The position numbers and the translations under genes are program-made. From Escherichia coli (GTDB lineage Bacteria > Pseudomonadota > Gammaproteobacteria > Enterobacterales > Enterobacteriaceae), in NCBI RefSeq assembly GCF_030013205.1, contig NZ_CP122648.1: a stretch of 64,000 nt of DNA. One strand, 5' to 3'. Shown here in pieces: positions 46,609-53,611 of the stretch. Below the pieces are notes generated by a model. It made no database searches. It had not been told where the DNA came from and saw only the letters and a program-made list of their open reading frames with translations. Every line of letters starts with the position of its first letter. The first letter of the stretch is position 1.

Positions 46609-52672
<6,064 letters not shown>

Positions 52673-52678
52673 TACTTA

Positions 52679-52709
52679 CCCGCAGAAATCATTCTGCGGG
52701 TATTAAGTT
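52679..52709 (+). terminator. Hairpin terminator candidate downstream of astE
   Basis: CCCGCAGAA-ATCA-TTCTGCGGG followed by a weak T-rich tract. Confidence 0.5.
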
Positions 52710-52845
52710 ACTTTCTTATAAATTAATACAGATTAATCCTGGTTATTTGCTTTATTTATCACCAGTCATCCGGTATAGTTCTTCATAATCTCTGCAAAAT
52801 CATCGTGTTGTAATATTCCCTCATCACTCTCCATCAAATTTTCTT

Positions 52846-52863
52846 TTTTTCTCCATAATTGGC
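52846..52863 (+). promoter_or_regulatory. BaeR box in the spy promoter region
   Basis: TTTTTCTCCATAATTGGC matches the BaeR consensus TTTTTCTCCATDATTGGC as I recall it. Confidence 0.55.
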
Positions 52864-52917
52864 GCAAAAGTGTTTTTTACACTTTCATTGTTTTACCGTT
52901 GCTCTGATTAATTGACG

Positions 52918-52932
52918 CTAAAGTCAGTAAAG
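52918..52932 (+). promoter_or_regulatory. Candidate CpxR-type tandem pentamer (CTAAA..GTAAA) upstream of spy
   Basis: CTAAAGTCAGTAAAG approximates GTAAA-N5-GTAAA but the spacing is imperfect. Confidence 0.3.
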
Positions 52933-53001
52933 TTAATCTCGTCAACACGGCACGCTTCTTAAGAAAGCCGTAATAAATAACTGAAAGGAAGGATATAGAA
53001 T

Positions 53002-53487
53002 ATGCGTAAATTAACTGCACTGTTTGTTGCCTCTACCCTGGCTCTTGGCGCGGCTAACCTGGCCCATGCCGCAGACACCACTACCGCAGCACCGGCTGAC
53101 GCGAAGCCGATGATGCACCACAAAGGCAAGTTCGGTCCGCATCAGGACATGATGTTCAAAGACCTGAACCTGACCGACGCGCAGAAACAGCAGATCCGCG
53201 AAATCATGAAAGGCCAGCGTGACCAGATGAAACGTCCGCCGCTGGAAGAACGCCGCGCAATGCATGACATCATTGCCAGCGATACCTTCGATAAAGCAAA
53301 AGCTGAAGCGCAGATCGCAAAAATGGAAGAACAGCGCAAAGCTAACATGCTGGCGCACATGGAAACCCAGAACAAGATTTACAACATCCTGACGCCGGAA
53401 CAGAAAAAGCAATTTAATGCTAATTTTGAGAAGCGTCTGACAGAACGTCCAGCGGCAAAAGGTAAAATGCCTGCAACTGCTGAATAA
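53002..53487 (+). CDS. spy: Periplasmic ATP-independent chaperone Spy, 161 aa
   Basis: ORF 53002..53487; signal peptide ending AHA. Confidence 0.95.
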   Translation: MRKLTALFVASTLALGAANLAHAADTTTAAPADAKPMMHHKGKFGPHQDMMFKDLNLTDAQKQQIREIMKGQRDQMKRPPLEERRAMHDIIASDTFDKAKAEAQIAKMEEQRKANMLAHMETQNKIYNILTPEQKKQFNANFEKRLTERPAAKGKMPATAE

Positions 53488-53507
53488 TCTTTCAGCCAAA
53501 AAACGTA

Positions 53508-53572
53508 AGACCGCCGGTCTTGTCCACTACCTTGCAGTAATGCGGTGGACAGGATCGGCGGTTTTCTTTTTT
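53508..53572 (+). terminator. Compound hairpin terminator downstream of spy
   Basis: AGACCG-C-CGGTCT, then GTCCAC...GTGGAC, then CGGCGG followed by TTTTCTTTTTT. Confidence 0.65.
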
Positions 53573-53611
53573 GTTCTCAAACAGATGCAAAAAAAGCCTG
53601 ATCGCCACTAA

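Follow-up and report, generated by a model that had tools for sequence, protein, structure and literature searches.

Placement of the BaeR and CpxR sites in the spy regulatory region of Escherichia coli

The spy locus and its BaeR sites

The stretch of Escherichia coli DNA analysed here (64 kb, hereafter the window) carries astE (51689-52672), spy (53002-53487), ves and cho, in this gene order and on the expected strands, as read from its list of open reading frames. The label spy is taken from RefSeq, where genomes with 100% identity and MG1655 (b1743) carry it. Of 5426 complete E. coli genomes, 5425 match a 1-kb query around the site, with the annotation astE and spy, and 5420 contain the regulatory region (191-bp query) at an identity of at least 95%. 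Between 52660 and 53010 (351 bp) the window aligns with MG1655 without gaps and with three SNPs (window/K-12: 52710 A/G, 52819 C/T, 52957 T/A), none of them inside the motifs discussed below; the BaeR boxes, the CpxR candidate, the -35 and -10 elements and the leader hairpin of the K-12 MG1655 spy promoter are base-for-base the same as those of the window. The open reading frames, the RefSeq annotation and the MG1655 alignment thus bear out the original prediction that this is the spy promoter. The accompanying remark that the promoter "retains" its regulatory sites is uninformative: the DNA comes from E. coli, and what the window contains is the reference promoter.

The upstream limit of the regulatory region is probably set by a GC-rich hairpin, CCCGCAGAAATCATTCTGCGGG, which lies at 52680-52701 directly 3' of the astE stop codon and is probably the astE terminator; a terminator scan gave no entry for it. 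For comparison across species, spy loci were taken from 80 Enterobacteriaceae genomes and the 260 nt upstream of the ATG were aligned, first for 25 genera and then for 79 distinct sequences. Over these 260 nt, the mean identity of the 79 sequences to the window base is 0.71. The features of the region are collected in Table 1.

Table 1. Features of the spy regulatory region, in window coordinates. Mean identities refer to the 79 aligned sequences.
Feature	Sequence	Position	Strand	Remarks
Distal -10	TATAGT	52773-52778	+	Kim et al. 2012 place a TSS 9 nt downstream
Distal copy of 21-nt direct repeat	TTCTTCATAATCTCTGCAAAA	52779-52799	+	Found by repeat search
Distal BaeR-type box 1	TCTTCATAA	52780-52788	+	Exact match to TCTNCANAA
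Distal BaeR-type box 2	TCTGCAAAA	52791-52799	+	Exact match to TCTNCANAA; 11 bp from box 1
Distal TSS		52787	+	215 nt upstream of the ATG
Putative BaeR-like half-site	TCTCCATCA	52828-52836	+	22 bp upstream of the proximal box; 1 mismatch to TCTNCANAA
BaeR box (18-mer)	TTTTTCTCCATAATTGGC	52846-52863	+	0 mismatches to consensus TTTTTCTCCATDATTGGC
Proximal copy of 21-nt direct repeat	TTCTCCATAATTGGCGCAAAA	52849-52869	+	Includes most of the 18-mer BaeR box
BaeR core	TCTCCATAA	52850-52858	+	Mean identity 0.86
ATTG after BaeR core	ATTG	52858-52861	+	Mean identity 0.95
Candidate CpxR region	TTTACACTTTCATTGTTTTAC	52876-52896		Mean identity 0.96
Extra GTAAA beyond candidate CpxR box	GTAAA	52880-52876	-	Whole element 52876-52896
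Best CpxR-box candidate	GTAAAACAATGAAAG (GTAAA-ACAAT-GAAAG)	52896-52882	-	N5 register, 8/10 matches
-35-type hexamer	TTGACG	52912-52917	+	Mean identity 1.00; 16 nt upstream of TAATCT
Tandem of the original prediction	CTAAAGTCAGTAAAG (CTAAA-GTCA-GTAAA-G)	52918-52932	+	N4 spacing; coordinates as predicted
-10 candidate	TAAAGT	52928-52933	+	Mean identity 0.98
-10 candidate	TAATCT	52934-52939	+	More variable; T6 lost in several genera
Conserved block	CGTCAACACGGC	52940-52951		Mean identity 0.97
5' stem-loop of short spy mRNA	ACGGC...GCCGT	52947-52972	+	In the MFE fold of the short leader
spy coding sequence		53002-53487	+	161 aa, ATP-independent periplasmic chaperone; ORF list and RefSeq annotation

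The consensus TTTTTCTCCATDATTGGC is credited to Nishino et al. 2005 in passages of PMC3799227, PMC11644481 and PMC3915751. The 18-mer that had been proposed as a BaeR box agrees with it at every position, on the same strand as spy, and the further statement that this box and the CpxR-like string lie 70-160 bp upstream of the start codon also holds (156 to 70 nt, with the ATG at 53002). At up to three mismatches, the consensus has two matches in the whole 64-kb window against 0.27 expected. The string is thus far beyond chance, yet the match is partly by construction: spy itself, with mdtA and acrD, supplied the sequences behind the consensus, and at this place the window does not differ from K-12. 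As the published BaeR box, the 18-mer is already known. Its mean identity in the 79 sequences is 0.82, against 0.71 for the region, and in 56 of the 79 species the proximal core fits a second consensus, TCTNCANAA, at all seven specified positions. This other published BaeR consensus is credited to Yamamoto 2008 in a passage of a citing paper.

Boxes of the spy type, each an 18-mer in gene-sense orientation with one mismatch to TTTTTCTCCATDATTGGC, are present at mdtA (TTTTTCTCCCTTATTGGC, MG1655 2153945-62) and acrD (TTTTTCTCCACGATTGGC, 2587507-24); all three genes are reported as BaeR targets. The layout differs, since the mdtA and acrD boxes lie 54-88 nt upstream of the ATG, near the core promoter, whereas the spy box lies 139-156 nt upstream. 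In spy, unlike mdtA and acrD, the interval from the BaeR box to the start holds a CpxR candidate as well as a separate -35, and in addition there is a distal duplicate of the BaeR site.

The duplicate forms part of a 21-nt direct repeat whose copies are 76% identical, with a start-to-start spacing of 70 bp. The distal copy holds two exact matches to TCTNCANAA and the proximal copy a third, so that of 13 exact matches in 64 kb, three fall within 79 bp on one strand at spy. The positions that vary among these three boxes are exactly the N positions of TCTNCANAA, which suggests that this consensus was itself derived from them. Distal box 1 matches six or seven of the seven positions in 59 of the 79 species. 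Mean identity is higher in the proximal core than in the distal boxes (0.77 and 0.68), and at the putative half-site between the two copies it is 0.65, below that of the region.

Published BaeR ChIP-exo data list two peaks at spy, at MG1655 1825677-1825711 (peak_1) and 1825823-1825843 (peak_2) (PMC7657598, Data Set S2). Converted by the gapless alignment, they correspond to window positions 52916-52950 and 52784-52804, respectively; they flank the 18-mer on either side, and the 18-mer itself is covered by neither. Peak_2 (S/N 9.25) falls on the distal tandem BaeR site. Peak_1, which contains no BaeR-type box, spans the core promoter and is most likely a trace of the polymerase complex, as would be a second mdtA peak that lies just downstream of the mdtA box.

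Taken at face value, the occupied distal tandem and the 18-mer without a peak would point to a different division of labour, in which BaeR acts in vivo mainly through the distal tandem (52780-52799), and the 18-mer is secondary or cooperative. The two perfect TCTNCANAA boxes with their 11-bp spacing and the retention of the distal BaeR block across genera agree with such an arrangement, which we nevertheless regard as doubtful, though the best placed of the alternatives considered here. The 18-mer, not the tandem, is the element common to mdtA and acrD, and at mdtA it is covered by a BaeR ChIP-exo peak (peak_5, 2153931-67; PMC7657598). The proximal core is also the better conserved of the two sites. 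Furthermore, a ChIP-exo peak need not lie on the true box: at cpxP, the CpxR peak (4105757-803) misses a perfect box at 4105726-40 by 17 bp, while the CpxR peaks of yccA and ppiA do contain their boxes. Lastly, peak_2 coincides with the distal TSS and therefore may reflect polymerase. The ChIP-exo data thus speak neither for nor against occupancy of the 18-mer.

The CpxR site and the proximal core promoter

The canonical CpxR pattern, in the published consensus as quoted in the literature, is GTAAA-N5-GTAAA. The original prediction described CTAAAGTCAGTAAAG as an imperfect CpxR GTAAA repeat downstream of the BaeR box. The string and its two direct pentamers, CTAAA and GTAAA, are indeed present and match at 9 of 10 positions in their own N4 register; what is poorly supported is the reading as a CpxR site, given the N4 spacing, a first pentamer conserved at background level and a position within the core promoter. 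With the canonical N5 spacing and up to one mismatch, no match is found in the spy promoter. At up to one mismatch, the N4 register has 10 matches in the 64-kb window, where about 4 are expected. The CTAAAGTCAGTAAAG region drops to 8/10 in the N5 register, a score reached by 72 matches in the window against 56 expected. By consensus match alone, the CpxR-like string is thus near chance and not clearly above it. Conservation is uneven along the tandem: mean identity is 0.72 for the first pentamer (52918-22), against a background of 0.71, 0.39 for the spacer GTCA (52923-26) and 0.96 for the second pentamer. The 9/10 match in the N4 register, with a variable spacer, is kept in 36 of the 79 species, and therefore some minor role for the tandem is possible.

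A stronger candidate lies about 30 bp upstream of this tandem on the opposite strand. The best CpxR box there, GTAAAACAATGAAAG, also scores 8/10 in the N5 register and is likewise at chance level by consensus alone (the same 72 against 56). Across species, GTAAA and G[A/C]AAG are kept in 79 of 79, while the 5-nt spacer between them varies (ACAAT, GCATT, ACAGT, TCAAT); invariant pentamers around a variable spacer are the pattern expected of a tandem that is bound by a protein. The centre of the candidate box is about 51-57 bp upstream of the expected proximal start.

The cpxP promoter offers a parallel. Its perfect box, GTAAAACAACGTAAA (MG1655 4105726-40), is identical to GTAAAACAATGAAAG at 12 of 15 positions, the box is inverted relative to the gene in both promoters, and the distance from the box to GTAAA[C/G]T is exactly 30 nt in both (cpxP 4105726-4105777). 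The two differ in the second pentamer, GAAAG in spy and GTAAA in cpxP, and in the distance from the box to TGACGC, which is 10 bp shorter in cpxP than in spy. Spy and CpxP are paralogous proteins, so that a shared promoter layout is plausible, and the likeness fits the view that the two promoters may be related, as their genes are.

Judged by conservation and the cpxP layout, the CpxR site of spy is most likely the inverted box at 52882-52896, which is a stronger candidate than 52918-52932; the earlier placement is probably about 30 bp off and on the wrong strand. In CpxR ChIP-exo, no peak was called at spy and one was called at cpxP (PMC7657598).

The place of CTAAAGTCAGTAAAG becomes clearer when the core promoter is considered. 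At 52912-17, 78 of the 79 species have the hexamer TTGACG and one has TTGACA. At 52928-33, 70 species have TAAAGT, 8 have TAAACT and 1 has TATAGT, with T1, A2 and T6 kept in all 79, which reads as the signature of a -10 hexamer. Two pairings of elements are possible. In the first, TTGACG and TAATCT, 16 nt apart, would direct a start at about 52946/47. This has ideal sigma-70 geometry and the RNA would begin right at the conserved hairpin, with the drawback that TAATCT lacks T6 in several genera. In the second, a weak -35 CTGATT (52904-09) is followed after 18 nt by TAAAGT, with a predicted start at about 52940/41. The second pairing agrees with the conservation pattern and with the cpxP parallel. 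It would place the CpxR box at about -51 in spy, compared with -46 to -50 in yccA as derived from its mapped starts. A simple sigma-70 scan found no promoter at its thresholds, a paper on constitutive promoters has no entry for the spy promoter, and strings from the spy promoter gave no match in a full-text literature search.

On either pairing, CTAAAGTCAGTAAAG fills the interval from the invariant -35 into the -10 candidates, and it lies inside BaeR ChIP-exo peak_1. It is most likely the core-promoter spacer together with the start of the -10 element, and its GTAAAGT half is most simply read as the -10 region, rather than as an activator site.

The TTGACG of the -35 and a CGTCAA at 52940-45 form an inverted repeat that flanks the -10 region, with 22 nt between the arms. 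Both arms are essentially invariant in the 79 species, and therefore covariation cannot test whether they form a structure or a dimer site.

That CTAAAGTCAGTAAAG is nonetheless the site of CpxR-P through which Cpx activates spy is unlikely. Besides the 9/10 pentamer positions, the strongly conserved second pentamer and the 36 species that keep the match, such a role could draw on a study of Salmonella in which a Gibbs sampler picked GTAAACT, at the equivalent position of cpxP, as a 'CpxR motif' (PMC6361445 S2 Table). The spacing and the first pentamer, as described above, do not conform, and at the corresponding place of cpxP there is no partner pentamer upstream. A protein bound between the -35 and -10 elements would be expected to obstruct polymerase, but CpxR is an activator of spy. 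Conservation of TAAAGT, moreover, follows the T1/A2/T6 pattern of a -10 element, down to the one TATAGT variant. CpxR boxes with variable spacing have reportedly been described by one group, which would count for CTAAAGTCAGTAAAG as a CpxR site.

Least of all is to be expected from a forward motif that precedes the ribosome-binding site in the 5' leader (GTAATAAATAACTGAAAG, E. coli 52970-52987): although the Salmonella study obtained GTAAAAATAACTGAA, which lies 16 nt before the spy start codon of Salmonella, by Gibbs sampling (PMC6361445 S2 and S3 Tables), and the AATAACTGAAAG block within it is conserved, this is a purely computational pick with GTAAT as the first E. coli pentamer and a poor second register, it lies downstream of any plausible TSS and adjoins the Shine-Dalgarno sequence, which is no position for an activator, and the conservation of AATAACTGAAAG is equally explained by the translation-initiation region, so that a CpxR site there is highly improbable. 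That the Salmonella study made a different CpxR pick shows that pattern-based placement is unreliable at the spy promoter.

The distal promoter and the leader RNA

A spy TSS was mapped by Kim et al. 2012 at 1823864 (v2 coordinates; 152 reads; upstream sequence ...GGTATAGTTCTTCATA; PMC3415461 Table S1), and corresponds to 52787 by way of the gapless MG1655 alignment. It is the only spy TSS given for MG1655 in that study (PMC3415461). The -10 element upstream of it is TATAGT, TATACT or TATAAT across the 25 genera. With a start at this position, the BaeR and CpxR boxes are inside the leader of the distal transcript. Upstream of the distal -10, the 25-genus alignment has two blocks in common to many genera, GATTAATCCTGG and TGCTTTATT (52732-52755), which may represent either the distal promoter's -35/UP region or the site of another regulator.

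The leader of the short transcript opens with a hairpin at 52947-52972 whose stem has compensatory variants: ACGAC/GTCGT in 13 distinct sequences, and GCGAC/GTCGC and GCGGC/GCCGC in one each. The loop length varies greatly among species. The element is probably a 5' hairpin that would stabilise the mRNA. An Rfam scan of 52600-53600 found no known RNA element, with a single meaningless miRNA match (E = 0.15). That the long leader might occlude the ribosome-binding site was considered and rejected, since the mean unpaired probability from the Shine-Dalgarno sequence to the AUG shows no clear difference between the long leader (0.24) and the short one (0.32). There is also an inverted repeat, 79% complementary, which joins the CpxR-box region (52882-52895) with the conserved AATAACTGAAAG before the Shine-Dalgarno sequence (52974-52987). 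The second arm is the motif that the Salmonella study lists as a CpxR site (PMC6361445). As an RNA structure this repeat was set aside, as no compensatory changes were seen by eye in the aligned sequences.

It is tempting to speculate that the two promoters form a switch, in which active BaeR would shut off the long-leader transcript and simultaneously turn on the proximal short-leader transcript. The distal promoter, starting at 52787, would make a leader of 215 nt in which the BaeR and CpxR boxes are present as RNA, and a tandem BaeR site, occupied in vivo according to ChIP-exo, would sit on the distal +1. Such a switch seems improbable on present evidence. The distal TSS and the ChIP-exo peak have each been published; as far as could be found, the literature does not discuss them jointly.

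Dual control of spy by BaeR and CpxR

The expected dual envelope-stress control of spy is confirmed by expression data. In ethanol, spy is down by a log2 of 5.76 in a baeR knockout and by 3.04 in a cpxR knockout (PMC7657598), and reporter data agree that spy depends on both BaeR and CpxR (PMC12488859). The BaeR box and the control of spy by BaeSR and CpxAR are already known and belong to the textbook account of E. coli envelope stress.

The interval is the well-known E. coli spy regulatory region, probably with the CpxR box inverted and upstream, and with the plus-strand tandem lying within the core promoter. In such an architecture, a distal promoter (TATAGT at 52773-78, TSS at 52787) would come first, its start overlapped by the tandem BaeR-type boxes (52780-99). 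A second, related BaeR site containing the 18-mer would follow 70 bp downstream (52846-69), and then the inverted CpxR box (52882-52896), some 51-57 bp upstream of the proximal start. The proximal, stress-inducible core would consist of TTGACG (52912-17) and either TAAAGT (52928-33) or TAATCT (52934-39) as the -10, and would give rise to a short leader that opens with the conserved hairpin. Each of the two phosphorylated regulators, BaeR and CpxR, which belong to the OmpR family and bind direct repeats, would act from upstream on the proximal promoter by recruiting RNA polymerase or stabilising it there.

The outcome is thus a correction. Pentamer matching alone misplaces the CpxR site; the cross-species alignment favours an inverted box that lies upstream of the -35 and shows the conserved GTAAAGT to have the behaviour of a -10 element. 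A minimal Pspy fragment for use as a stress biosensor should include the distal BaeR tandem together with the distal TSS and the 5' hairpin.
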